Shown here one piece after another: positions 3,419 through 53,144 of a stretch of DNA of 64,000 nucleotides. Origin of the DNA: Escherichia coli (GTDB lineage: Bacteria; Pseudomonadota; Gammaproteobacteria; Enterobacterales; Enterobacteriaceae); the NCBI RefSeq assembly GCF_024700885.2, contig NZ_CP117016.1. One strand, 5' to 3'. The notes under the pieces were generated by a model. The model made no database searches. It was not told where the DNA came from and saw only the letters and a list, made by a program, of their open reading frames with translations. Position numbers and translations under genes: made by a program. The first letter of the stretch is position 1; each line of letters opens with the position of its first letter.

Positions 3419-3503
3419 GCCGAAGTGGCGAAATCGGTAGACGCAGTTGATTCAAAATCAACCGTAGAAATACGTGCCGGTTCGAGTCCGGCCTTCGGCA
3501 CCA
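3419..3503 (+). tRNA. leuX: tRNA-Leu (anticodon CAA)
   Basis: 85-nt sequence GCCGAAGTGG...TTCGAGTCCGGCCTTCGGCACCA with a CAA anticodon loop and long variable arm; genomic position after ahr. Confidence 0.9.
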
Positions 3504-38138: not shown

Positions 38139-40142
38139 TTAACGAACCAGGTGCAGGAAGTGCAGATGTTTTTCGTACTGGTCCAGTATGTCATTAATCA
38201 GCTGTTCCTGGTTCCAGCCCATCACATCATAATTTTGACCGCCTTCTTTGAGATAAACCTCAGCGCGATAATATCGATGTTGTTCAGTCTGCTGCTCATC
38301 ATTATCCATTGCGGCGAGCGCGAAGGTCGGTGAGATATACCCGCGAAGCCTCACTTCATATATAAAATTCAGCTCGTTGCCCAAATCGACTTCAAGACGA
38401 ATACGATCGTCGACTGCATCACTAATGTGGCTTATCGTCCCCTGCTTGTTCAGTTCCTCCTGAACCAGCGTCATGGCGGGCTGGATAACGTCGTCCATAA
38501 AACGTTTCACAAGAGATCGCTTCGGCAGATACGCGATATTGCGTAACCTTCTCTGCCAAGGAATTGGGTTACGTGCAGCCGTAGGAGCAATTGTCGCCAT
38601 GCTCAGGCTTTCACGCTTGGTCAAATCCCGGCGCAAAGCTTTTAAAAGTCCGTATATAGATATTAGTAAGATCACTGAGAAGGGCAATGCACTCGCTATT
38701 GTCACCGTTTGCAGCGCACTTAGCCCTCCGGCAAGGAGAAGCGCAATTGCAACAATGCCCATGAGCGAGGCCCAGAATATTCGCTGCCAGACGGGTGTGT
38801 TTGCCACTCCACCTGATGCCAGAGTATCCACAACCATTGCCCCCGAATCAGCAGACGTTACAAAGAAGACGATGACCATCGCCATTGCAATGAATGACAG
38901 CACAGAAGAGAACGGGAAATGCTCCAGGAAATTAAACAGGGCCAGCGCCACATCCTGCTGAACAGTATTGGCGAGGTCTGTGGCCCCCTGGTTCATAATG
39001 AGATAGATCGCGCTGTTACCAAACACCGTCATCCACATTAGCGTAAAACCCGCGGGAACAAACAGCACGCCGGTGACAAACTCGCGAATGGTTCGCCCGC
39101 GGGAGACTCGTGCGATGAACATCCCCACAAACGGCGACCATGAAAGCCACCATCCCCAGTACAGTAATGTCCAGCCCCCCAGCCAGTTGCTCGACTTGGG
39201 CTCATACGCGTAAAGGTTGAACGTTTTACTCACCAGTTCCGAAAGATAACCGCCCGTATTTTCCACAAATGACTTCAGCAGAAGCACGGTTGGTCCCAGA
39301 CACAGGACCAGCGCCAGGAGCAACAAAGCCAGACCCAGATTGAGTTCAGACAGGATACGTATTCCCTTATCCAGACCGGACACCACTGAAATCGTCGCTA
39401 ACCCCGTGATGACCACGATCAGAATTACCTGCACCGTTTCATTGATGGGCACCCCGAAAAGATGGTTCAAACCGGCATTCACCTGCAAAACACCGTAACC
39501 CAGTGATGTCGCAACGCCAAAGACCGTGCCTATAACAGCGAAAATATCAACCGCATGTCCTACAGGTCCGTATATGCGATCGCCAATAATGGGATAGAGT
39601 GCGGAGCGCAGAGTTAAAGGCAGACCGTGACGGTAACTGAAGAACGCCAGAATCAGCGCCACAATGGCATAAATTGCCCATGCGTGCAGTCCCCAGTGGA
39701 AAAAGGTCAGACGCATTGCTTCCTTAGCTGCCGCAACGGTTTCTGGAGTGCCAACGGGTGGCGAAAGATAATGCATTACAGGTTCGGCAACGCCAAAGAA
39801 CATCAGGCCGATCCCCATCCCTGCCGAAAAAAGCATCGCAAACCAGGAGTGGTAGCTGAAATCAGGCTGCGCATGGTCCGGGCCCAGCTTGATATCACCG
39901 TAGCGTGAGAGTCCAAGGAACGTGACACTCAGTAAAATCAGGGCCACAGCAAGGATGTAGAACCAGCTGGCATTCGTGAAGATTTGTTGCTGAAGTAGTT
40001 TAAAATTTTTGTCGGCGACATCCGGGAATACGGCGGCAAAGGCGACAAGAAGGAAAATTAGCAAAGCAGATGTAAAGAATACCGCTTTGTTAATCTGACT
40101 TGTAGACTTCTTTGGGATTGTATCATTTTCACTCATAATCAT
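38139..40142 (-). CDS. BCCT-family betaine/carnitine/choline transporter
   Basis: 667 aa; BetT-like polytopic protein with long C-terminal cytoplasmic tail. Confidence 0.75.
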   Translation of the reverse strand: MIMSENDTIPKKSTSQINKAVFFTSALLIFLLVAFAAVFPDVADKNFKLLQQQIFTNASWFYILAVALILLSVTFLGLSRYGDIKLGPDHAQPDFSYHSWFAMLFSAGMGIGLMFFGVAEPVMHYLSPPVGTPETVAAAKEAMRLTFFHWGLHAWAIYAIVALILAFFSYRHGLPLTLRSALYPIIGDRIYGPVGHAVDIFAVIGTVFGVATSLGYGVLQVNAGLNHLFGVPINETVQVILIVVITGLATISVVSGLDKGIRILSELNLGLALLLLALVLCLGPTVLLLKSFVENTGGYLSELVSKTFNLYAYEPKSSNWLGGWTLLYWGWWLSWSPFVGMFIARVSRGRTIREFVTGVLFVPAGFTLMWMTVFGNSAIYLIMNQGATDLANTVQQDVALALFNFLEHFPFSSVLSFIAMAMVIVFFVTSADSGAMVVDTLASGGVANTPVWQRIFWASLMGIVAIALLLAGGLSALQTVTIASALPFSVILLISIYGLLKALRRDLTKRESLSMATIAPTAARNPIPWQRRLRNIAYLPKRSLVKRFMDDVIQPAMTLVQEELNKQGTISHISDAVDDRIRLEVDLGNELNFIYEVRLRGYISPTFALAAMDNDEQQTEQHRYYRAEVYLKEGGQNYDVMGWNQEQLINDILDQYEKHLHFLHLVR

Positions 40143-40246
40143 TTATTCCATTAATTAAATTCGCACTGGATAGAAGGTACTACCTCTCACAAAGTAGCAA
40201 AGTTCAACTGGCTATGCGGCGTTAATCGGAATGCATGGTGGAATGT

Positions 40247-41493
40247 TGAGGTGTACTGGCAATAGCGGACACTACCATTTGTTCTTTTTTTAAGCAGCCA
40301 TCTGATGATATTTTTCCCTGAAGGCTGCCGGGGAGATATTCCCCAGACGAGAGTGACGACGCTGACGATTGTAGAAAATCTCAATGTATTCCCGTATTAC
40401 TGAGATGGCTTCATCCCGGTTATTAAAACGATAGTGGCTCAGGCTCTCATTTTTCAGCGTTCCCCAGAAGCTTTCCATCGGAGCGTTGTCGTAACAGTTA
40501 CCTTTACGCGACATTGATGTTTTCAGACCAAACTGCTCCTGTATGACACGGTAATCGTATGCGCAGTACTGTGAACCTCGATCAGAGTGGTGGATTAGCC
40601 CGGCAGGTGGGCGCTGGCTCCTGAGCGCCATAAACAGGGCTTTACCTGTCAGCTCTTTTGTCATGCGCTCTCCCATGGCGTAGCCGACAATTTCGCACGT
40701 ATAAACATCTTTGATGCCAGCGAGGTACAACCATCCCTCCTGTGTGGCAACATACGTCAGGTCCGCCACCCAGACCTGATTTGGTGCTGTAGGAGCGAAC
40801 GTCTGGTTCAGCAGATTTGGCGCAACTGGCAGATTGTGGTTCGAGTTCGTAGTCGCTCTGAACTTGCGTTTCTGCTTACAGCGTAGCCTTAGCTCCTTAC
40901 GAAGACGTGCCAGTCGGTCACGACCAACGATGATGCCATTCTCTGCCAGCTCCGTCTGGAGCTGCCGGGTTCCATATGTTTCGCGAGTGCGGATATGCGC
41001 CACCTTAATCTCCAGTTTTAGCCGCTCATCACTTTGTTTTCTGTCTGAGGGTTCATGCTGTACCCAGTTGTAATAACCGCTCCTGGATACACCAAATACC
41101 TGACACATCGCTTCAATGGGAAATTGTTGTCGCCATTGTTCGATTAACGCGTATTTTTCAGCGACTCCTGTGCAATTTAATATATCTCGCTCAAGGCGAG
41201 CTTCATTTAACGCCTTACGCAGTTGCAGAATTTCAGATTCCAGTTCAGCCACCGTGCGGGAACCAGGAGTACCGAGCCCTTTTCTGGCGGCGGTAACCCA
41301 TTGTCCTAAAGTGCCTTCAGGAAGAGATAATCGGGAAGCACCTTCACTGATCGAAAGTTGATTTTCAAGAACCGTTCTGACAGCTTCGGCTTTGAACTCT
41401 TTAGAGTAACGTTGGGTTTTTCTGCTCATTATTAGCTCCTTCTGATGCCATTCTATTTCAGGAAGGAGTGTCCGTTAAACTCAGGCTACCTCA
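40247..41493 (-). mobile_element. IS3-family insertion sequence (1247 bp), imperfect terminal IRs TGAGGT...CGGACACT
   Basis: Terminal repeats at 40247-40276 and 41464-41493; internal transposase. Confidence 0.7.
40290..41429 (-). CDS. IS3-family transposase encoded as a single fused OrfAB reading frame (379 aa)
   Basis: N-terminal HTH and C-terminal DDE integrase core (ADLTYV, HHSDRGSQY, YDNAPMESFW) in one uninterrupted frame. Confidence 0.75.
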   Translation of the reverse strand: MSRKTQRYSKEFKAEAVRTVLENQLSISEGASRLSLPEGTLGQWVTAARKGLGTPGSRTVAELESEILQLRKALNEARLERDILNCTGVAEKYALIEQWRQQFPIEAMCQVFGVSRSGYYNWVQHEPSDRKQSDERLKLEIKVAHIRTRETYGTRQLQTELAENGIIVGRDRLARLRKELRLRCKQKRKFRATTNSNHNLPVAPNLLNQTFAPTAPNQVWVADLTYVATQEGWLYLAGIKDVYTCEIVGYAMGERMTKELTGKALFMALRSQRPPAGLIHHSDRGSQYCAYDYRVIQEQFGLKTSMSRKGNCYDNAPMESFWGTLKNESLSHYRFNNRDEAISVIREYIEIFYNRQRRHSRLGNISPAAFREKYHQMAA

Positions 41494-41575
41494 TTGGTTC
41501 CCACTACTTATTTGGTGGACACCACTTTGTCTAATTCGTCAGATTCTGACCAGACGGTTCAGGCTGTACGCTTAC
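41494..41575 (-). mobile_element. Orphan IS66-family terminal fragment (82 bp)
   Basis: Same 82-bp string as 49521-49602, the left end of the IS66 copy at 47315-49602, ending ...GTACGCTTAC. Confidence 0.7.
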
Positions 41576-41609
41576 AAACAACTAGTGGAAATACTTGTAC
41601 TTTATAATT

Positions 41610-42554
41610 TCAAGGGTACGGGTCCGCTTCGTTTGATTTGCGTGTTTTTAACAATTTTAAAACCCAGACATACTGTTCCGGATGTGGCCCCACCAAAATT
41701 TCCACTGTTTTGTTCATTTGTCGGGCAATCATTTTATTGTCCGCGCTGGCAATGCAAGCATCCATTGGTGGCCGAATTTCAATAGTCAGGAGATGTTTTT
41801 TTTCATCATAAACCGGGAAAAGTGGTATAATCATAGCCTGACTGATGTTCATCAGACGTCCAATGATTGGTAATGTCGCTTTATAGGTCGCAAAAAAATC
41901 AGCAAATTCACTGTATTCAGGACCATGATCCTGATCTGGGAGGTAATATCCCCAGTATCCCTGGCGTACTGACTGAATAAATGGTTTTATCCCATCCTCC
42001 CGGGCATGTAAGCGCCCCCCGAATTTACGCCGTACTGAATTCCAGACATAATCAATCACTGGATTTCGTTGCTGATGAAACATGGCGGCCATTTTTTTTC
42101 CCTGAGCTGCCAGCAACATTGCAGGAATATCCACGCTCCAGCCATGGGGAACCAGAAAAATCACATTTCTATTATTGTGTCGAATTTCCTCAAGAATTTC
42201 GAGGCCTTTCCAGAACACTCGTTTCTGGAACTTTTCCGGACCACGAATTGCCAGTTCTGCCATCATCACTATGGATTGCAATGCTGTGGCAAACATTTTG
42301 TCGACAATTATTTCCCGTTCTGTATCACTCTTTTCTGGGAAACAAAGCGATAAATTAATCGTCGCCCTGCGACGAGCTTTTTTGCTCAATCTGCCCACCC
42401 AACGCCCTATTTTTGCCAAGACAGGATCTCTGAATGAAGGGGGAAACATTGAAATACCTGCAATCATTCCCAAAAGGAACCATGTAGACCAGTAAACAGG
42501 GGAAAGGTAATTTTTCTTAAATTCAGGAATAAACTCAGATTTATATTTTTTCAT
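41610..42554 (-). CDS. Lipid A secondary acyltransferase (LpxL/LpxM family, MsbB2-like)
   Basis: 314 aa; LpxM-family call on overall similarity (acyltransferase H-box region around VPHGWS); adjacency to a virK-like gene as on Shigella virulence plasmids. Confidence 0.7.
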   Translation of the reverse strand: MKKYKSEFIPEFKKNYLSPVYWSTWFLLGMIAGISMFPPSFRDPVLAKIGRWVGRLSKKARRRATINLSLCFPEKSDTEREIIVDKMFATALQSIVMMAELAIRGPEKFQKRVFWKGLEILEEIRHNNRNVIFLVPHGWSVDIPAMLLAAQGKKMAAMFHQQRNPVIDYVWNSVRRKFGGRLHAREDGIKPFIQSVRQGYWGYYLPDQDHGPEYSEFADFFATYKATLPIIGRLMNISQAMIIPLFPVYDEKKHLLTIEIRPPMDACIASADNKMIARQMNKTVEILVGPHPEQYVWVLKLLKTRKSNEADPYP

Positions 42555-42618
42555 TATTTAGTGCGAATGCCTCTACCAAAATTATCATTACTGTTTTATT
42601 CAGAGAATACATCAAACC

Positions 42619-43233
42619 TTAATTTAAATTCTGATGTTCTGAGTGTACAGGATATGCATCCAAAGAGCGGATAGTAGTTTCATGGATATAATCCAGCAAA
42701 GCGTATCGTTTTCGGTACTCAGAGCGTTTTTTACTGGCTATATCGCTTAGCGGCTTTCGAATCACCTGGGTTGGTAATCTGTACCAGTCACCACAGGTTT
42801 TTCCTGCTACAGACTCCCAGAAATCACTATAGACCGCAACAAAGGTTTTGCGTTTCTGATACCAGTATCTCAATTGCCGGAAAACATGACTGTGCTCACT
42901 GACTGCCAGACACTCAGAGATATTGCAAGCTTTCATCAACGCACAAAATGCTTCAAAAATAATCCGTTTTGGGAAAATCCCATAACAGGCCCGGGTTGCG
43001 CACCGAATAACATCAGGTCCGGTATTTTTAGGGGCTCCCTGTAATCCGCCAATAAAAGCAATGTGTCCATTTTGAGTCAGAATGACTGAAAATGTTAACC
43101 GGGCAATAACTGTTTTATTGTAAAACAATGACAACATCAACTCTCCTTCCCGGTCAAAACCACTGGGAGAACACTGGATATCAAAATTCTCTCCATCTTT
43201 CCCGATGAATTGGACTAATGATACCGATTTTTG
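42619..43233 (-). pseudogene. VirK-like (DUF535) gene, 5'-truncated at the IS1 boundary
   Basis: C-terminal 173 aa (IGGLQG, ACYGIFPKRI, RKTFVAVYSDFW); ORF runs into the IS1 end at 43234. Confidence 0.55.
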
Positions 43234-43288
43234 GGTAATGCTGCCAACTTACTGATTTAGTGTATGATGGTGATTTTAAGGTGCTTGC

Positions 43289-43564
43289 GTGGCTTCCATT
43301 TCCATCAGATGTCCTTCCTGCTCCGCTACTGAAGGCGTGGTGCGTAACGGCAAAAGCACTGCCGGACATCAGCGCTATCTCTGCTCTCATTGCCGTAAAA
43401 CATGGCAACTACAGTTCACTTACACCGCCTCTCAGCCCGGTACGCACCAGAAAATCATTGATATGGCCATGAATGGCGTCGGATGTCGCGCCAGTGCACG
43501 CATTATGGGCGTTGGCCTCAACACGGTTTTACGTCACTTAAAAAACTCAGGTCGCAGTCGGTAA
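43289..43564 (+). CDS. insA: IS1 InsA
   Basis: [30 protein letters not shown]... Confidence 0.85.
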
Positions 43565-43986
43565 CCTCGCGCATACAACCGGGCAGTGATGTGATTGTCT
43601 GCGCTGAAATGGACGAACAGTGGGGCTACGTCGGTGCTAAATCACGTCAGCGCTGGCTGTTTTACGCGTATGACAGGATACGGAGGACGGTTGTGGCGCA
43701 CGTCTTCGGTGAACGCACTCTGGCCACACTGGAGCGTCTTCTGAGCCTGCTGTCGGCCTTTGAGGTCGTGGTATAGATGACGGATGGCTGGCCGCTGTAT
43801 GAATCACGCCTGAAGGGAAAGCTGCACGTTATCAGCAAGCGTTACACTCAGCGCATTGAGCGACATAATCTGAATCTGAGACAACATCTGGCAAGGCTGG
43901 GACGGAAGTCACTGTCGTTCTCAAAATCGGTGGAGCTGCATGACAAGGTCATCGGGCATTATCTGAACATAAAACACTATCAGTAA
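43483..43986 (+). pseudogene. insB: IS1 InsB with in-frame TAG stop at 43774-43776
   Basis: Translation reads ...[18 protein letters not shown] across the stop; canonical IS1 has W at this position as I recall it. Confidence 0.7.
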
Positions 43987-44071
43987 GTTGGAGTCATTAC
44001 CTCCTCCCGAACTCAAAGCTATCATACAGATAATTACTGGTTAACCCTATATAGGGCATTTTAAAGTGTTG

Positions 44072-44400
44072 TGATCTTACCCAGCAATAGTGGACACGCG
44101 GCTAAGTGAGTAAACTCTCAGTCAGAGGTGACTCACAAGACAAAACAGTTTCAACCAGTAAAAAAACGTAAACACCATTCGCATGAATTTCGTAGTTAAG
44201 ATCTGAAGCTTGCAGAATGCATCGGTGTTACTGCCGGAGTCCGTGAACTTAGTCTGCATGAATCACCACAGCTTTACATCTGTCGCAGTAAACAGCAAAA
44301 TCAGCAAACTTACTTAATTATATCGAGTGCGATTACAATCGCTGGCGATGGTACAGTTGGTGTGGCGGTCTCAGTCCGGAACAATTTGAAAATCAGAATC
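44072..44400 (+). mobile_element. IS3 internal-deletion relic (left IR, 5' of orfA, fused to the 3' end region)
   Basis: TGATCTTACCCAGCAATAGTGGACACGCGGCTAAGTGAG... followed by degenerate orfA 5' sequence and then orfB 3' sequence. Confidence 0.55.
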
Positions 44401-44710
44401 TCACTTAAAACGGCATCCATTTTACAAAAGATGGCCGTCTGTGTATTTATAATGAATACCTTCTACATGTTTAGAGTGCATAATCCACGACAAGGCGATA
44501 TCCTAAAAATTAGCTAGCAGGCAACTTTGATGGCATAGATAATGTTTTTAGTAAAAAAGAGTTGACTTAATATAATACAGCCTCTTCCTACATAAGAAGG
44601 AATGTGCTCACAAAAAAAAACATTAGTCTGCTTCCTGTTCTTACAATAATCAGTATTATGTATTTTATTTATATAGCAAAATATGCTTGTTACACCTGTC
44701 ATAATTAGGC

Positions 44711-45004
44711 ATGGTAAAATTATTGACTGAACCCTGGGGGAGAAAGATGCACAGTGATTATTATAATATGGTTTTTGGTGAAAAATTGGCCAATATTTTA
44801 TATGAAGCTAACTCTCAATTTTTTTACGAGAGAAATGTCATAGAAGAGGCAGTCAACGCTTTATTCTGTGAGCGTGAAATAATAAACAACAAGAACATAA
44901 TAAAGAAGCTGATGTTCTTTTTGTCAGATGTTAATCACACCAAGAAAGATGTTGTTCAGAGCGCACTTAATATTATCATTGACATTACATCAGGTGATAT
45001 TTGA
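44711..45004 (+). CDS. Hypothetical small protein (97 aa), AT-rich
   Basis: ORF only; no recognisable motif; weak support. Confidence 0.25.
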   Translation: MVKLLTEPWGRKMHSDYYNMVFGEKLANILYEANSQFFYERNVIEEAVNALFCEREIINNKNIIKKLMFFLSDVNHTKKDVVQSALNIIIDITSGDI

Positions 45005-45261
45005 GATTTTACATAAAAGATAATCTCTCAAGGAGTCTTATCTGAAAACGAAATATATAGTCCCTCTCGTTTTGTAATATCGATTGGCTTTGTTGAATCG
45101 GTTACGTACCCCGGAGCCGGTCATATTTTCAGGTAATACACACGCTTTCAGACATTTCGGCTTTCGTCATTTTGGTATCATGGGCATAGCTTCTGCTACC
45201 TGACCATCATAATCACGCAGCTTCAGTGAAGCAGTGACCACCTGTTTAACCCGGTGTATCG

Positions 45262-45486
45262 TTATGATCTTATCCAGCAATAATGGACACGCGGCTAAGT
45301 GAACCGCCCCGGGTTTCCTGGAGAGTGTTTTATCTGTGAACTCAGGCTGCCAGATCATCGTTTCCGATGGAAGCATAATAAGCTTTTTCTGCTTCTGCCG
45401 GTGGGATATGGCCCTGCCTTTCCAGCAATCGTCGATTGTTATACCAGTCCACCCACGTGAGTGTGGTCAGCTCATCATACTGACAC
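45262..45486 (-). mobile_element. IS3-family (IS629-like) 3' fragment abutting a second IS3 left-IR copy
   Basis: Minus-strand frame encodes ...WVDWYNNRRLLERQGHIPPAEAEKAYYASIGNDDLAA; end sequence TGAACCGCCCCGGGTTTCCTGGAGAG. Confidence 0.5.
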
Positions 45487-45754
45487 GTGCATTACCCCTA
45501 CCGCGATAATGCAACCGTACAATATAGGGCGTTTCCTAAACGCAGCCCTCATCACTCCAATCCAACAAGACACAGCATTTTTGATCACGAAGAAAGACAA
45601 ATAATTTCCGTAAATGTTTCCGTTGTTACAAATAACAACAGTGTTTTACATTTCTTTGGCCTCAGGCCCGCGCATGTTGCCATTCGATGTCATTTTCCTG
45701 ACTCGTTTCTTCTTTATGGTGTAGTGTGATCTTCACTTTATGGATGCTAACAAT

Positions 45755-47113
45755 ATGAAAAGAAAAATTATTCCCGTGCTAATCGGTTGTACGCTCTCTT
45801 TCTCTGCCCTGGCGGCACAACCTACGGCTGAGCGCTATGTCGTCAGTTTTCCAGAAGGCACGCACGTGAACTACGCCGGCGCATTTGCCAGTGCATTCCC
45901 GAACGGCCTTCCGGTTGGGATAGGTTCTGGCCTGCTGTTCACCGGTAAACAGGGCGATGCCCTGACATTCGCAACCATTACCGATCGCGGTCCGAACGCG
46001 GATTCACCGAAAGAGGGGAAAAACGAAACTAAAATTTTCGTTACGCCAGATTTCGCGCCGCTGCTGATGACGATTCGTGTACAAAACGGCAAAGCGGAGG
46101 CCATCGATCCCCGTCCTCTGCATGACGATAAAGGCGCGATCAACGGTCTGCCGCTGGCAAGCGACGTGATTGGCTCCACCAATGAAGTGGCCTTCAGCGA
46201 CACGTTACATAGACTGAAGGGGGATAATCGCGGGCTGGATACGGAAGGGATCACTCCGGATGGTAAAGGAGGTTACTGGCTGTGCGATGAGTATGGCCCG
46301 TTCCTGATTAACATCGACAGTAAAGGGAAAATCCTGGCAATCCACGGTCCGCAGGCGGCGGAAGAGGAAAAAGCGATTGCGGGCGGTTTGCCAAATATCC
46401 TCAAATGGCGTCAGGCGAACCGCGGCTTTGAAGGCCTCACCCGTATGCCGGACGGGCGTATTATTGTCGCCGTGCAAAGTACGCTGGATATCGACGCTAA
46501 GAGCAAGAAAAAGGCGCTGTTTACGCGTCTGGTGAGCTTCGATCCGGCAAGCGGAAAAACCGCGATGTACGGTTATCCCATCGACAGCGCGGCCTACAGC
46601 AAAAACAGCGACGCTAAAATCGGAGACATCGTGGCGCTCGATAACCAGCACATCCTGCTGATCGAACAGGGAAGAGATAAAAACAACAGAATGCGTAACC
46701 TGATTTACGAGGTCGATCTCAATAAGGCGAGCGACCTGTCAGGCTTCGACAAGCCGGGTGAGTATCCGGAGTTTGATGATGAGAAAACCCTGTCACAGCG
46801 CGGCATTACCCTTGCGCAGAAAACGCAGGTTGTTGATCTGCGCTCCTTGGGCTGGCAGCAGGAGAAGGCTGAAGGGTTGGCGCTGATCGACAGCAAAACG
46901 CTGGCGGTGGCGAACGATAACGACTTTGGCGTGAAGGTGGCGATGCAACATCCGGTCGAGGGCAAGACATTCAAGGATTATCGGGTGAACGCGGAAGGAA
47001 AGCTGACGCTTGACGACAAGCAGGTTGAAACGACCCTCAGAGTGAAGCCACTGGAGAAACCGGAGTCTGACAGTGAACTGTGGATTGTGACGCTGCCGGA
47101 AGCGTTGAAATAA
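45755..47113 (+). CDS. Secreted phytase-like esterase family protein (signal peptide)
   Basis: N-terminal signal sequence MKRKIIPVLIGCTLSFSALAA; family call is tentative. Confidence 0.55.
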   Translation: MKRKIIPVLIGCTLSFSALAAQPTAERYVVSFPEGTHVNYAGAFASAFPNGLPVGIGSGLLFTGKQGDALTFATITDRGPNADSPKEGKNETKIFVTPDFAPLLMTIRVQNGKAEAIDPRPLHDDKGAINGLPLASDVIGSTNEVAFSDTLHRLKGDNRGLDTEGITPDGKGGYWLCDEYGPFLINIDSKGKILAIHGPQAAEEEKAIAGGLPNILKWRQANRGFEGLTRMPDGRIIVAVQSTLDIDAKSKKKALFTRLVSFDPASGKTAMYGYPIDSAAYSKNSDAKIGDIVALDNQHILLIEQGRDKNNRMRNLIYEVDLNKASDLSGFDKPGEYPEFDDEKTLSQRGITLAQKTQVVDLRSLGWQQEKAEGLALIDSKTLAVANDNDFGVKVAMQHPVEGKTFKDYRVNAEGKLTLDDKQVETTLRVKPLEKPESDSELWIVTLPEALK

Positions 47114-47314
47114 GTTTATAAGGTACGGACAGCAGTATCGCTTAGTTTTTCAAATTCATGTATGTGAACAATATTGGGGTTCCGGCGTAGACCCCCAATG
47201 AAAGCGTCACCACGTGAAAACATGCCTGCACGGTTTACACGTCATCCCATGGTGGCAGCCGGTTAACTTTCCTGCGCCACCAGTGGAAAAAGGCCATAAG
47301 CAGTCCGAACAAAA

Positions 47315-49602
47315 GTAAGCGTACAGCGAGGGCCGTATTGACGGGGATGTGTTATTCAGCTGGCAGTGCTATGCGCCACGGAAGCAGTTCGCTGACCCGG
47401 TTGACCGGCCAGTCTGCTATGACGCCAGGCACATGGCGAAGGTAGCTTTCTGGATCCACGTCATTCAGTTTGCACGTCCCGATCAGGCTGTACAGTAGCG
47501 CTCCCCGCTCACCACCATGGCCAGAGCCGAAGAACAGGGTCTTCATCTTTTCACGCAACCAGCTTTCCAGGGATTTCAACAGCGGTTTCGTTTTTCGCTG
47601 ACGTTCAGCAAGCCGCTGCTCTGCCGGCATTCCCCTTATATCCGCCTCTATGGCGTACAACTGACCGATCTGCTCCAGGGCTTCTTCCGTCAGTGCTGAC
47701 GGGATGCGGACGTGCACATCGTGGATCTTTCGGCGGGCATGAGCCCAGCAGGCAGCTTCCGTTATCCCACCATTGCGATACAGCTCGTTGAACCCGGCGT
47801 ACGCATCCGCTTGCAGCACACCGCTGAAGCAAGCAAGATGAGTCTGCGGATGGATGCCTTTTCTGTCCGGGCTGTAAGCGAACCTCACTGCAGGTGCCAA
47901 CGCTGACCCGGCATTGCGGTCATCACGAACATACGCCCACAACCGCCCGGTCTTCGTCTTCTTATTACCCGGCAGCAGTACCTGGACCGGGGTATCATCG
48001 GCATGGAGTTTGCCGTCAGTCATGACATAGCCATGAAGCGCCTCTTCCAGCGGAGACAGCAGCCGGCAGCATGCATCCACCCAGCCCGACAGCAGTGAAC
48101 GGCTCAGCTCCACACCTTGCCGGCCGTATATTTCTGACTGGCAATACAGCGGGGTGTGCTCTGCATACTTCGAGGTCAGCACGCGGGCCAGCAGCCCCGG
48201 TCCGGCGATACCCCGCTCGATGGGCCGCGAAGGTGCAGGTGCCTGCACGATGGCATCGCACTGAGTACAGGCATGTTTTTCCCGTACCGTCCGGATAACC
48301 CGGAAGGCGCTACGCATCAACTCCAGCTGTTCGGCGGTATCCTCGCCCAGATAGCTCAGTGAACCGCCGCAGTTCGGGCAGCACGGCGCCGCAGGCAACA
48401 GTCGCTTTTCGTCACGGGGTAGTGATTCAGGGAACGGCTTACGGGTGCGGGTCTGACGCAACGGACGCTGTACTGCCGGGTCATACACCCTACCAGTCAG
48501 CGTATCGCTCTCTTTCTGAAGCCGGTTCAGATCGGCTTCCATTTGTGCGATACGGCGGGAGACTTTTTCGGAACGACTGCCGAAGTTCATCCGGCGGAGT
48601 TTATCCAGCTGCGCCTGCAGATGTCTATTTCGCGCTCCCGGTTGCTCAGCTTTTCCTGCAGGGCGTGGATCAGCGCTTCCTGTTCGGCCAGGCGCTGTTT
48701 CAGCAGGAAGATGTCGTCAGAAGAGATTTCGTTCATAAGCCCGTATTTTACCGGGCTTATTCTGTGACAACCAGGATAAAGAGATTTACAGCATGGTCAG
48801 GGAGGTCAGCAGCCGCTTGGGCTGTCGCCAGTCGATACCTTCCAGCAGCATCGCCAGCTGCGCCTGCGTAAGGAACACTTTGCCATCACGGGCTGACGGC
48901 CAGGCGAAGCGCCCACGCTCCAGCCGTTTGGTCAGGAGGCACAGTCCGTCACCGGTGGACCACAGCAGTTTAACCTGACTGCCGCTGCGGCCCCGGAAAA
49001 TGAAAACATGGCCGGACATGGGATCGTCTTTCAGCGCCGTCTGTACTTTCGCAGCCAGGCCGTTGAAGCCATTTCTCATATCGGTGATACCGGCAACCAG
49101 CCAAATTTTGGTCCCGGAAGGTAACGGGATCATCGCTTCAGTTCCTGTATCAGCAGAGTCAGGAGCTTTTCGCTGACATTGCCATTGAAGCGGAGCGTCC
49201 CGTGCCGGAACGTTACCTCACAGCTGATACTGAGGGTTTCCGGGTCCTCTGCGAGCGATTCTGGCTGTTCGGCAGCTGCATCGGGAGTCACAGGAAGTAG
49301 CTGGGGGCTCTCTGAAGAAGGTAATAGCAGCTTTCCCTCGCGCCATTGTTGTCGCCATTTGAACAACAGATTGGCGTTAATGCCATTTTCAAGAGCAAGT
49401 TTTGAGATGGATATCCCGGGTTCACAGGAGGCAGCAACGAGCTGCTGTTTAAATTCGGGAGGATAATTAGGGCAGCCTTTTCACCTGCCGGGAGTCACAT
49501 TTTTCTGCATATCTGACACTTTGGTTCCCACTACTTATTTGGTGGACACCACTTTGTCTAATTCGTCAGATTCTGACCAGACGGTTCAGGCTGTACGCTT
49601 AC
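47315..49602 (-). mobile_element. IS66-family element, degenerate (tnpC frameshifted with an internal deletion)
   Basis: Ends GTAAGCGTAC... and ...GTACGCTTAC; orfA 49130-49366, orfB 48786-49133, tnpC pieces 47352-48590 and ~48600-48760. Confidence 0.75.
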
Positions 49603-49708
49603 CACTATTTTATCCCTGTTGAATTTGGTTAAGCCGGTGCAGACGCGCCGGGAAACGCACACCTGAACCGGCACAATAAAATACAATACAACCCCCTGTT
49701 ACTGGAGA
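49603..49708 (+). repeat. Second copy of the 106-bp repeat, directly abutting the IS66 end
   Basis: Identical to 35432-35537. Confidence 0.8.
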
Positions 49709-49864
49709 TACGAATGGAATGACGAGGCAGCCTGTCAGTCACAGGGGGCTGTTGGCATAAAATCAACGGAAAGGCCACCAACACCGGAATTAAGCTCCAC
49801 AGTCCCCGCACTGGCAATCCATTCCCGGGAAAGGCATCACCGCAAACTGCTCCGGAGGCAACCA

Positions 49865-50299
49865 TTACAGCCTCTGTAACGGATTATCAGCCCTGGCATC
49901 TTCCGACGGCACCTCCTGCCGCCCCCACGCCCTGCTGTATACCCCGGTACCGCAGCGTGGGCAGCACTTTTCCCCCTCATAATCTTCGTCACACATCACA
50001 CAAAACCACTTTCTCACCTTCACCGTATAATCCGGAACCGTCATGCCCTGCAGATGCAAACGACGGGCCTCTTTCTCCGCCGGGTCAAGCCAGGTACATC
50101 GCAGCAGGATTTTTTCAGCGACAGTCATCTGGTCATGTTCAAACCACGGTGGTTGTCCGTCATTGCCCCGCTGAAGTGTTAACGGGCATCCACAGGACAC
50201 ACAGCACAAAACGTCCTGTCGGTTGTGCTTCGCAGCTTCTTTCGCCGTAACAAAATGGCCTTTGCTGTCATTCGCCATATAACAGTTCAGAATTCGCAT
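49865..50299 (-). CDS. Zinc-ribbon hypothetical protein (paralog 1)
   Basis: CxxC pairs (CCVSCGC, CVMCDEDYEGEKCCPRCG); start set at MRILNCYM. Confidence 0.5.
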   Translation of the reverse strand: MRILNCYMANDSKGHFVTAKEAAKHNRQDVLCCVSCGCPLTLQRGNDGQPPWFEHDQMTVAEKILLRCTWLDPAEKEARRLHLQGMTVPDYTVKVRKWFCVMCDEDYEGEKCCPRCGTGVYSRAWGRQEVPSEDARADNPLQRL

Positions 50300-50694
50300 A
50301 TTTCCTCCTGAGTTGTCCGGGGAATACTGAATCCTCCGGTCTGGCAGTGTGTGCAGTACTGCTCCCCATAATAATCGTGGTGACATTGTCTGCAGTGCCA
50401 GCTGGCTTTACGCACCACGGGTAAGGCATCCGATACGAATTGCTGCAGACGTTTAATCAACTGTATTTCTCTGCGCTCCGGCCTGACATAAGGGCACTGT
50501 TGACCGTGCTCTGTCAGCCTGTCGTCAGTGTGTTCAAACCAGGGAAGTTCAGTGTCGTATTGCGGATGGTATCTGAGTGCACTGCCACACAAGTGGCAGG
50601 TGTAGTTAGCATAAGGTGCGTCCTGTGCAGTACGGGCGCCCGTCAGACGTCCGTTGCCATCAAGAGCGATAAAGGATTTTGCGTACATAGTCAT
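50287..50694 (-). CDS. Zinc-ribbon hypothetical protein (paralog 2)
   Basis: CxxC pairs (CHLCGS, CRQCHHDYYGEQYCTHC); shares the WFEH motif with paralog 1. Confidence 0.55.
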   Translation of the reverse strand: MTMYAKSFIALDGNGRLTGARTAQDAPYANYTCHLCGSALRYHPQYDTELPWFEHTDDRLTEHGQQCPYVRPERREIQLIKRLQQFVSDALPVVRKASWHCRQCHHDYYGEQYCTHCQTGGFSIPRTTQEEICEF

Positions 50695-50947
50695 ATTCCT
50701 TAGCCGCCAGACGACACGCAGGCAACAGCCGTCCCGGTACGGGCAGCGTGGTCAGGGTGTGAATGGCGGTTCAGTTAAAATCTGGACTGGAGTTTGGGTA
50801 AAGCAGGCTGGTTGCTGTTACAGCACTGTGGTTGTCACACAATGGAACACTGACGTAAAAAACAGTCAGTGGGCGAGTGGATACATCGTTGCCGCCAGAC
50901 AACAACCCATACTTTTGGTTTGCCGGATATTGGCGCGCCAGTCGTGC

Positions 50948-51517
50948 TCAACTCCGGCTACAGCCAAAATTGCGCTCACCGGTGCAGTGAGCTTTGGTAT
51001 GCTCTTTCGCCAGATAGTCAGCACGTTCCAGCACTTGCTGAAAGCCGGTGTCATCATTACGCGCCAGCCACACCGCCGGCCAGGCCGGAAAATGCACCAG
51101 CGTGGCATGGCACCCGACATCCACTCCCAGGGCACTGCACCACGCCTGTTTAATCATCCCGGCCAGAGACTCCGGAGCGCGGTAATCACCGGCACGACAC
51201 CAGGTATCCCGGTTGACCAGCAGCATCAGGTGATAGTGTTTTTTACCTTTGAACTCCCCAAACTCCCGGGCCCAGACGTAATGCAGGGGGGTGGGATGCA
51301 CGCGTTTACCTTTCCGATGCTTACGTTTCTGGTAAGCGTCGATTCGGGCTTTCAGGGCATTGATGAAGCGGGATATCACAGCTGCGTCCGTTGCTGCCGG
51401 TACATCCGGGAGACGCAGGTCAACCCGCAATGCCGTCAGGCGGGGATGAACATTCAGTGCGTGCCGCACCGTCTCACGAATACGTTGCTGCCAGAAGGGG
51501 TTGTATTTGTAGGTCAT
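50948..51517 (-). CDS. YagK/YfjJ-family (inovirus Gp2-like) protein
   Basis: Start set at MTYKYNPFWQQRIRETV; prophage-remnant family. Confidence 0.6.
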   Translation of the reverse strand: MTYKYNPFWQQRIRETVRHALNVHPRLTALRVDLRLPDVPAATDAAVISRFINALKARIDAYQKRKHRKGKRVHPTPLHYVWAREFGEFKGKKHYHLMLLVNRDTWCRAGDYRAPESLAGMIKQAWCSALGVDVGCHATLVHFPAWPAVWLARNDDTGFQQVLERADYLAKEHTKAHCTGERNFGCSRS

Positions 51518-51712
51518 GGTTAAATCTCCGTATGGTTCATACGGAATAGCCACGTCGTAAAAAATGCGCAGAGTCCCTGAAGTGACCTCCGGCAGGACAC
51601 TGTCTCAGGCACTCTGTGATAACCCGAACGGTCGTCTCCGGACTGACGGTTGAATTTTCAGCGTCGTTTTTTAATGTAAAAAACCGGTTACGGGTAAGGC
51701 TGTGAGGAGGGA

Positions 51713-51916
51713 GTGATGGTGATACGCAAAAAGAAGTGCAGGGATTGTGGAAACGCGATTACTCATAATACAGTGTGTTGCCCGTATTGTGGTTCTGTCG
51801 ACCCCTTCGGCTACTACCGGAATACAGACCGTATCGTTACCATACTGCTGGCGCTGATTATTGTGGTCCTGCTGACTACTGTCAGCGTCAGTGTGTGTAT
51901 ACTGTGTAGCTGGTGA
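51713..51916 (+). CDS. Small zinc-ribbon plus TM protein (67 aa), hypothetical
   Basis: CRDCGN...CCPYCGS followed by a hydrophobic tail. Confidence 0.3.
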   Translation: MMVIRKKKCRDCGNAITHNTVCCPYCGSVDPFGYYRNTDRIVTILLALIIVVLLTTVSVSVCILCSW

Positions 51917-53144
51917 GATAACGGTTCATGTATCCCCTGAGCTGACAGTGTACCGTGTATATTAAGCGTAACCGACAGGTTCTCCTTCATACCATATTAA
52001 ATTTTCCAGGGATTGCCGCTGCCTTATTTCGTCTCATACAGGAAAACTCATCTGGGTTTCTGACAAATACGCGAAACTCACAGCCCCTCAATATCAACCA
52101 CACGTTGTAAGCCGGTAATACCTGAAAATCAGCCTATTACCGCCCACGCCTCCGGCACCATTCCCTTTTGATTTCGAATTCTTTGTTGTCGCTATACCGC
52201 TTAATGTTCCCGGTCCTCCGGTGCAGATAACACCGGAGTCATCGTAGCGCTGCTTCAATATTCAGGTGACATATTTCCAGACGGAAGCCGGCGCGCGATC
52301 GTAAAGTTTGTTCATTGTCAGTTCTGCCAGCCGGTTGTCAACGGCAGAGTTAAAGGCTTCCAGCTCCGCAAGGGTAAGTTTATAACGCGTGTGGGAATTC
52401 ACTTTTCCCGCGTCTCCTGACGTATTACGGGCTGCCACTTACCTGGTGTCCCGCAATACAGCCTTAGTGTTCCGTTATCGGGGATCCGGACGCACCGCAA
52501 CAACCGGGGAAGTATTTCTGGTTTAGAGCATTGTCAAGAGGGATTTCTCAGCCCCTCACTCACCGCTCAGTCTCAGGGCAGGAGCATTAATACGCTCAGT
52601 TCATGTCTTATACAGGAATGGGCACAGGGGGAGCTGGCGTGTCACTGCTGATTTTACGCATCAGCGTTCATGTATCTGCACTCTGATACATGAACGATTC
52701 ACAGCGCTCTGTTACCGGAGAGATTTACTCTCTTAGCTTACTCTGGCAAATCCTTTACGTTACTCTCTGATGACTTCTTATATTTATAATACCAATCAGA
52801 CAGCCTTATCCCATCGGTGATATCAGTCTCCTCCTCGCCAGGAACGGGCTGACTCACTGTAACCACCTCCGAAAACAACTCTGCAATTATCAGAACGCCT
52901 GCTTCTCTCCCTGTCCTCACGAAAACTATCCCCTCTTTATCGCGCGTGCGTGCGGAAGCATCTTTTCGCAACAACCACCCGGTATACCGGTACGGCTCAG
53001 CCACCGCAACCTCCCCGTTTATCTCCTGGCGGTCACATTCCCGATTATTTTTTACGTTTCTCCCCGGTTGTTATGCCGGTGAAGGTGGCGCGCTGTTTTC
53101 ATGACCACACCGGCTGGTTTAACAACATCCGGAGGAACATTCTC

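Follow-up and report, generated by a model that had tools for sequence, protein, structure and literature searches.

Which function can be assigned to a gene for an exported, phytase-like protein that lies among the remains of insertion sequences (ISs) in Escherichia coli, and by what route did it get there? The gene lies within a 64,000-nucleotide stretch of contig NZ_CP117016.1 (assembly GCF_024700885.2), referred to here as the window, and its product belongs to the Pfam family PF13449. A preliminary description, made from the letters of the window, had proposed that the protein could act on phosphorylated or esterified substrates. Our analysis points, with moderate probability, to a PhoB-induced periplasmic metal-dependent phosphohydrolase that would scavenge phosphate. 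The suggestion of a phosphorylated substrate gains independent support from a Pho box that is conserved upstream of the orthologous genes. RefSeq already contains both the gene and the family assignment, and the gene is very common in E. coli; annotation gains nothing here. What is new, on a modest scale, is the inference of a conserved Pho box, which opens the function to direct testing.

Pho boxes upstream of the orthologous genes

A Pho box is defined as two 11-bp repeats with a conserved CTGTCAT (Blanco et al., quoted in PMC2648988). The consensus of the E. coli Pho box, CTGTCATAWAWCTGTCAY, was scored at 80 ortholog loci, and the best match in the 120 bp before each start codon was taken. 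The obtained results showed a box, in the form of an nTGTCAT-N4-cTGTCAy direct repeat, in 76 of the 80 upstream regions, which are otherwise unalignable between genera. Scores of at least 13 out of 18 were reached at 90% of the ortholog loci (72/80), against 1.4% of random 120-bp windows from the same loci and 1.4% of the regions upstream of 576 other long open reading frames (ORFs) within these loci. With the threshold set to at least 14 out of 18, the corresponding figures were 80%, 0.2% and 0.7%. The TGTCA cores, at box positions 3-7 and 13-17, were almost invariant among the 74 distinct promoter strings, and the flanks were variable.

In phoA-type promoters, the Pho box replaces the -35 element and is located ~10 bp upstream of the -10 hexamer. 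A TAnnnT-type hexamer was observed exactly 10 bp 3' of the box in 68 of the 74 distinct promoters, and the box ended 43-62 bp before the ATG in 73 of them, the remaining one (L062) having a distance of 83 bp. A homolog from a different lineage, only 44% identical, displayed a 16/18 box with the same 10-bp spacing. A consensus scan of positions 45000-47500 of the window found no consensus -35/-10 sigma-70 promoter. The architecture of a Pho promoter is thus present in nearly all of the orthologs; the allele of the window is weak when taken alone, and its support comes from positional homology (Table 1). The E. coli-type 5' leader is 5 bp longer than that of the Enterobacter orthologs. Ancestral control by the Pho system is well supported by these comparisons, and E. 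coli has plausibly, though not certainly, kept it.

The Pho regulon influences the virulence of extraintestinal pathogenic E. coli (ExPEC) and avian pathogenic E. coli (APEC), and an array study of an APEC pst mutant, with probes for CFT073, EDL933, Sakai and K-12, reported c1153, which was induced in the mutant, as its only pathogen-specific ORF bearing a Pho box (PMC2648988). We considered whether c1153 is the present gene; it probably is not, as no PF13449 gene is annotated in the 45-kb stretch of CFT073 that was estimated to contain c1153.

Reading frame, export and fold of the protein

The ORF listing of the window gives an ORF at 45740..47113 (+), equivalent to 457 residues from its first ATG. 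The start at ATG 45755 yields the 452-residue product, which opens with MKRKIIPVLIGCTLSFSALAAQP (MKRKIIP...). RefSeq, which lists the product as WP_000823241.1 for the MLI114 chromosome (100% identical) and as WP_000823242.1 for plasmids, uses this ATG, and it is the sole start kept across the orthologs. The longer ORF from ATG 45740 was rejected, as the site reads AAGGAC in L004 and overlaps the conserved Shine-Dalgarno stretch GGATGCTAACAAT. Pairwise ratios of nonsynonymous to synonymous substitution (dN/dS) between the gene of the window and 18 orthologs were 0.08-0.19, with values of ~0.09 (0.08-0.1) against the Enterobacter orthologs. Because of these ratios and of the hundreds of homologs, the gene is not a chance ORF, and we conclude that its protein is under purifying selection. 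No intrinsic terminator was found 3' of the gene on the + strand between 47113 and 47350.

The preliminary description of a signal-peptide protein of about 450 residues agrees with what we observed, an intact ORF with Sec-type signal features. The N-terminus has a basic n-region, MKRK (KRK), a hydrophobic core, IIPVLIGCTLSFS, and an A-L-A/A cleavage motif, of which the Ala-Ala at residues 20-21 is conserved in the orthologs. Residues 1-20 alone have a low pLDDT in the AlphaFold model, where they are disordered or helical, and the chain is well folded from residue 23. A lipoprotein, as might be read from the lipobox-like 'LIGC', was rejected as unlikely, given that Cys12 is replaced by T, S or A in the orthologs; inspection of the N-terminus revealed no twin-arginine motif. 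These features suggest a Sec-exported protein that is probably periplasmic.

The family call of the preliminary description, offered there as tentative and weak, was confirmed by a profile search. PF13449 ('Phytase-like / esterase-like activity of phytase') matched with 149.3 bits, against a gathering threshold of 27.6 bits, and E=2.9e-43. The match spans profile positions 4-284 of 284 and protein residues 60-396; PF13449 was the sole Pfam family reported for the protein at E<=1, with no competing family, and an NCBIfam search with the protein matched no family. Relatives are numerous, with 2057 clusters at 50% identity reaching E<=0.001. The family name is a computational label, and enzyme activity of the protein and its close relatives is predicted from sequence; no single-domain PF13449 protein has been characterised biochemically in the literature searched.

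Conservation was assessed in a family alignment of 72 sequences with 30-89% identity to the query, which was also used for AlphaFold2. Every position that is at least 90% conserved in this alignment, among them D77, R78, D162, E164, E179, E226, D291, E304, E373, D388 and D390, is present in the query. The near-invariant family residues are mostly carboxylates, plus Arg and Lys: D77, R78, D162, E164, E179, R223, E226, R258, D291, E304, E339, K371, E373, D388 and D390. Such conservation is as expected of a metal-dependent phosphoesterase, and falls short of proof.

The AlphaFold2 model (pLDDT 95.6, pTM 0.92) is an all-beta propeller with insertions. Its strands form five groups of four, each opening with a conserved x-[DE]-G at residues ~57, 162, 224, 288 and 372, a pattern which suggests a five-bladed propeller core. 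Two insertions, one a hairpin (103-147) and the other helical (328-365), and a beta appendage at the C-terminus complete the model. A Foldseek search of the Protein Data Bank (PDB) with the model returned only generic propellers, with TM scores of at most 0.37, and neither a beta-propeller phytase nor PhoX was among the top 60 neighbours. The single protein had no match in a PDB sequence search at E<=1, and the 72-sequence profile matched only generic NHL/'Pizza' blades, with Drp35 and YjiK as marginal hits; by either search, the PDB holds no solved structure closely related to the protein, nor a template for its active site.

Domain fusions in distant homologs provide a further view of the family. 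UshA-type 5'-nucleotidase modules were present in three of the 25 homologs examined and a ParB-like nuclease in one of the 25. Distant PF13449 homologs also bear surface or secretion anchors (S-layer or T9SS). The choice-of-anchor I fusion partner was dropped as a clue to the substrate, since it is an MSP130-type Ca2+-binding propeller of unknown enzymology.

Capture, spread and surroundings of the gene

The limits of the captured segment were determined by blastn of window positions 44000-49000 against 15 ortholog loci. Homology to the loci of the presumed donor is limited to 45600-47119; it ends within six bases of the stop codon and includes ~155 bp of upstream DNA. This demonstrates that a single gene, together with ~155 bp of upstream DNA, was captured. 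The gene has a G+C content of 0.53-0.54, against 0.32-0.46 in the AT-rich DNA upstream. A larger block, consisting of IS fragments, the gene and part of the IS66 tnpC gene, was defined by megablast of window positions 40000-53000 against two E. coli plasmid loci (L001 and L002). On these plasmids, the block abuts one IS1 copy, and a second IS1 lies ~0.3 kb off the other side.

The preliminary description had read the flanks as IS3 and IS66 relics and the gene as IS-borne cargo. Both elements are present, although the IS66 is nearly complete and is not a relic. The block recurs on plasmids next to IS1 copies, and the gene is carried by chromosomes and plasmids alike, as mobilisation by ISs would predict. 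'IS-borne cargo' therefore appears to be a fair description, only partly shown by the limits of donor homology and the plasmid block beside IS1. The original junctions in the window have probably been lost, because no more than short fragments of the flanking IS3 and IS5 remain.

The 1.5-kb segment of gene and promoter is found in 2262 of 5426 complete E. coli genomes (~42%), at 2238 chromosomal and 66 plasmid places, with a median of one copy. The identity is at least 99% in all but one matching record, and the annotation shows an intact ORF in those matches from these genomes that were sampled. A 7-kb surrounding block is shared by 1682 genomes, and 62 plasmids cover at least 80% of positions 45400-47300. 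The carriers include ST131, ST95 and ST648. In the SRL pathogenicity island of Shigella flexneri the gene is designated orf34 and is followed by the same IS66 genes (PMC6980539).

Outside E. coli, the nearest proteins are encoded on chromosomes of the Enterobacter cloacae complex, Lelliottia and Pseudenterobacter (86-90% amino-acid identity), followed by Pantoea, Scandinavium, Pluralibacter, Yokenella and Mixta (77-82%). More distant orthologs occur in Buttiauxella, Cedecea, Cronobacter, Serratia, Yersinia, Pectobacterium and Brenneria (60-67%). The orthologs of environmental and plant-associated Enterobacterales are monocistronic chromosomal genes; one Pantoea agglomerans ortholog is located on a 548-kb megaplasmid and not on the chromosome (L022, NZ_CP090208.1, plasmid unnamed1). 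Two records carry labels from other lineages. The 2971-bp contig CAJKJS010000287.1 (L007), from a metagenome-assembled genome (MAG) named 'uncultured Ruminococcaceae bacterium', is 99.4% identical to window positions 45354-48324 and is almost certainly a mis-binned contig of E. coli island DNA. The record CACSKA010000015.1 (L033), labelled Chryseobacterium sp. 18061, holds an ortholog of 78% identity whose Pho-box promoter is of the enterobacterial type, which suggests a mislabelled or contaminated assembly.

The region is part of a chromosomal island inserted at the tRNA-Leu(CAA) gene leuX (window 3419-3503), adjoining ahr, yjgR and lptG. The whole mosaic from 3504 onward, including the phytase-like gene, is island DNA, and the island runs beyond the end of the window. 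The gene is preceded by a second lpxM, a virK truncated by IS1, a YmgB/AriR-family gene and the IS3 and IS5 fragments, and is followed by a DUF6404 fragment, IS66, a DUF7828 pair and a YagK/YfjJ-family gene; Ag43 and a CP4-like module lie farther along the island. The lpxM2 and virK pair looks like a remnant of the shf-capU-virK-msbB2 locus of Shigella and enteroaggregative E. coli plasmids and of the SRL island. The YmgB/AriR-family gene is not part of the plasmid copies of the block. The DUF6404 fragment is not homologous to the DNA 3' of the Enterobacter orthologs, where a cobW/yjiA-like gene comes next. The IS66 genes tnpC, tnpB and tnpA correspond to orf35-37 of the SRL pathogenicity island and to L0015, L0014 and L0013. 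The two DUF7828 ORFs overlap by 100 nt when read from their first possible starts and by ~13 nt from the RefSeq starts in the identical locus.

Table 1. Positions in the window of the gene, its control and export signals, the captured DNA and the neighbouring features.
Feature	Position	Strand	Basis and remarks
Putative Pho box, -35 position	45687..45704	+	ATGTCATTTTCCTGACTC (ATGTCAT-TTTC-CTGACTC); positional homolog of boxes scoring 13-17 of 18
Putative -10 hexamer, TATGGT	45715..45720	+	10 bp after the Pho box via GTTTCTTCTT
Shine-Dalgarno-like GGATG	45742..45746	+	8 nt before ATG 45755; 'GGATGCTAACAATATG' or 'GGACGCTAACAATATG' conserved in Enterobacter, Pantoea and Pluralibacter orthologs
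Coding sequence, 452-residue PF13449 (Phytase-like) beta-propeller protein	45755..47113, stop codon included	+	ORF, Pfam, RefSeq
Predicted Sec (SPase I) signal peptide, residues 1-20	45755..45814	+	MKRKIIPVLIGCTLSFSALA/AQP; sequence features, by inspection
Captured segment	45600..47119	+	Sole part homologous to chromosomal Enterobacter, Lelliottia and Pseudenterobacter loci, 80-87% nucleotide identity
3.2-kb block (IS fragments, gene, part of IS66 tnpC)	45085..48291	+	99.1-99.2% identity on E. coli plasmid loci L001 and L002
Lipid A acyltransferase gene, second lpxM (msbB2-like)	41610-42554	-	PF03279, E=6e-96
virK (DUF535) copy	42619-43232	-	N-terminus removed by IS1
IS1 copy, truncates virK	43233..44002	+	Internal stop in transposase; upstream limit of local IS debris
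YmgB/AriR-family gene (biofilm/acid-resistance regulator), 97 residues	44711-45004	+	AT-rich patch, G+C 0.32-0.36, between IS fragments
IS5/IS1182-family transposase fragment	45129..45259	-	RefSeq annotation of 100%-identical locus
IS3-family transposase fragment, C-terminal tail only	45342..45473	-	Translation ELTTLTWVDWYNNRRLLERQGHIPPAEAEKAYY / ELTTLTWVDWYNNRRLLERQGHIPPAEAEKAYYASIGNDDLAA; RefSeq 'IS3 family transposase, incomplete'
DUF6404-family gene fragment	47235-47312	-	Between the gene's stop codon and IS66
IS66-family element	47352..49414	-	tnpC frameshifted 47352-48736, tnpB 48786-49133, tnpA 49130-49414; tnpB/tnpA intact; ORFs, RefSeq
Two paralogous DUF7828 + zinc-ribbon (Zn_ribbon_11) genes	49865-50386 and 50287-50694	-	
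YagK/YfjJ-family ('inovirus Gp2 family') gene	50948-51553		Adjoins the DUF7828 pair

Proposed function and known systems

We propose the following course of events. A 1.5-kb piece comprising the gene and its promoter was picked up by IS-rich DNA from an Enterobacter-like donor (~90% amino-acid identity), and is at present carried by leuX/SRL-type islands of E. coli and Shigella, as well as by a plasmid block beside IS1 copies. The Pho box, located 10 bp upstream of the -10 hexamer in place of a -35 element, would let PhoB switch the gene on under phosphate starvation. The exported enzyme, probably Ca2+-dependent, would then release phosphate from exogenous organophosphates in the periplasm, with a phosphodiester or nucleotide-type substrate being somewhat more likely than phytate.

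Phosphate scavenging is pointed to circumstantially by the Pho box, the export signal, the nucleotidase and nuclease fusions and the neighbours of one distant homolog (42% identical, L091), which adjoins genes for a ugp-like ABC transporter and a GDPD phosphodiesterase. Upstream of this homolog, which has a TTG start and an AGGAGG ribosome-binding site, positions 5600-5783 of L091 contain repeated TTAACA-like hexamers; these resemble Bacillus PhoP boxes more closely than enterobacterial Pho boxes.

A number of observations weigh against this reading. The box of the window matches at just 12 of 18 positions, which 7-10% of background regions also achieve, and its position 17 is T, as in all five E. 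coli-type copies examined (the window, L001, L002, L003 and L007), where 72 of the 74 distinct promoters have A. PhoB control may therefore have been weakened in E. coli after the capture. The box is absent in three to four orthologs (Pectobacterium zantedeschiae, P. betavasculorum, Samsonia and an Aeromonadaceae MAG). No conserved phosphate-related neighbours were found in Enterobacterales, as the flanks differ among [Enterobacter] lignolyticus, Pantoea and Enterobacter. The literature searched on the gene and on PF13449 gave no experimental expression, regulation or activity for the gene or a single-domain ortholog; what it offered was annotation-level mentions and the induction of a cyanobacterial relative by phosphorus limitation. 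Separately, the upstream sequence of P. zantedeschiae, P. betavasculorum and Samsonia erythrinae (L058, L061 and L072) is a different one, common to the three and without a box; these orthologs may be co-transcribed with an upstream gene or otherwise regulated.

Other chemistries were considered for the protein. That it is a genuine phytase, a Ca2+-dependent beta-propeller enzyme releasing phosphate from myo-inositol hexakisphosphate, is implied by the Pfam family name and the RefSeq product name, and a Pho box would suit a phosphate-releasing enzyme of this kind. The protein has no match to PF02333, the family of Bacillus-type beta-propeller phytases, and PF13449 stands as its sole Pfam family; nor did phytases appear among the top 60 structural neighbours. 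An ortholog from Pantoea brenneri (L005, 80% identical) has been given as a 'phytase encoding sequence', by annotation only, yet one of the four phytate-hydrolysing P. brenneri strains, from one of whose genomes L005 comes, lacks an ortholog, and a histidine-acid phosphatase is present in all four (PMC12697123). We consider the phytase quite improbable. It is unlikely, too, that the protein is no phosphohydrolase at all, being a propeller carboxyl-esterase or lactonase (SGL/Drp35/paraoxonase-like) or, like the YjiK/SdiA-regulated domain, a periplasmic binding protein without catalytic function. This would leave unexplained both the Pho box in 76 of 80 orthologous promoters and the fusions to 5'-nucleotidase modules and a nuclease, and the similarity to those families is limited to generic NHL-like blade motifs.

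Two further explanations concern what the gene does for its present hosts. It might be a passenger in E. coli and Shigella, an unexpressed or unselected hitch-hiker on ISs and islands that brings no benefit to these hosts, which would be compatible with an ancestral function. The gene stands alone amid IS fragments and pseudogenes, and carries the Pho-box substitution and the 5-bp leader insertion described above. Set against this are the retained promoter core, -10 hexamer and Shine-Dalgarno sequence, and an ORF annotated as intact in the sampled matches (~2200 genomes) while the neighbouring virK, IS1, IS66 tnpC and DUF6404 are broken. However, E. coli copies that are at least 99% identical indicate a recent acquisition, so an intact ORF is no proof of selection within E. 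coli; similarly, the dN/dS of ~0.09 on the E. coli-Enterobacter branch argues against a passenger, though this branch mostly predates the capture. On balance, we regard the passenger as doubtful. The pathogenicity-island location would be explained by a virulence-associated enzyme acting on host phospholipids, phosphoinositides or nucleotides. The gene does occur in the Shigella SRL pathogenicity island and in the leuX island with lpxM2, the virK remnant and Ag43, is common in human clinical E. coli lineages (ST131, ST95 and ST648 among them), and its product has structural similarity to the Ca2+-activated nucleotidase/apyrase fold. Such a role is nevertheless very improbable, considering that soil, plant and water Enterobacterales carry the orthologs as ordinary genes on the chromosome, apparently controlled by the Pho system, that the gene is linked to neither a secretion system nor effector features, and that the literature searched gives no tie between it and virulence.

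The phosphate-scavenging phosphohydrolase would have consequences beyond this locus. A predicted exported enzyme, the ancestral promoter of which is a textbook PhoB promoter, is encoded in about 42% of complete E. coli genomes and in the Shigella SRL island. If this enzyme is an active hydrolase that scavenges phosphate, pathogenic E. coli would have a Pho regulon larger than the K-12 model. The small, soluble, single-domain protein would, in that case, be a tractable entry to a real activity for PF13449, a family of more than 2000 clusters whose name rests on prediction. More tentatively, and as a possibility we rate below even, single-domain PF13449 proteins could form an unrecognised class of PhoB-controlled periplasmic propeller phosphohydrolases that is widespread in Enterobacterales, one member of which was captured by ISs and spread to ~40% of sequenced E. 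coli and to the Shigella SRL island, so that the ExPEC Pho regulon gained a non-K-12 enzyme.

In comparison with known systems, PF13449, WP_000823241, WP_000823242 and SRL orf34 represent the same family and the same gene, and nothing differs in identity. Bacillus-type beta-propeller phytases are likewise exported beta-propellers that have numerous conserved carboxylates and take part in phosphate acquisition, although the present protein falls outside their profile. The alkaline phosphatases PhoX and Psip1 are Pho-regulated, exported, metal-dependent beta-propeller phosphatases, as is proposed here for the PF13449 protein; Psip1 illustrates that further propeller phosphatase families have been recognised only recently (PMC11098088). 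With the YjiK C-terminal/SdiA-regulated domain (PF06977; PDB 3QQZ) and the bacterial glutaminyl cyclases (3MBR and 3NOK), the alignment covers only about half of the 452 residues, at 11-17% identity; the cyclases have an unrelated chemistry, and neither they nor YjiK are known as Pho-regulated. The soluble calcium-activated nucleotidase SCAN-1/CANT1 (apyrase; PDB 2H2N), of a eukaryotic family, shows 13% identity, with no sequence-level relationship detected. The closest parallel to the control region is provided by the PhoB-activated E. coli promoters of the phoA and pstS type. The second repeat of the window allele (CTGACTC) is degenerate relative to these, and the orthologous promoters present the same TGTCA 7-mer direct repeat, with the same 11-bp periodicity, in place of the -35 element and 10 bp from the -10 hexamer.

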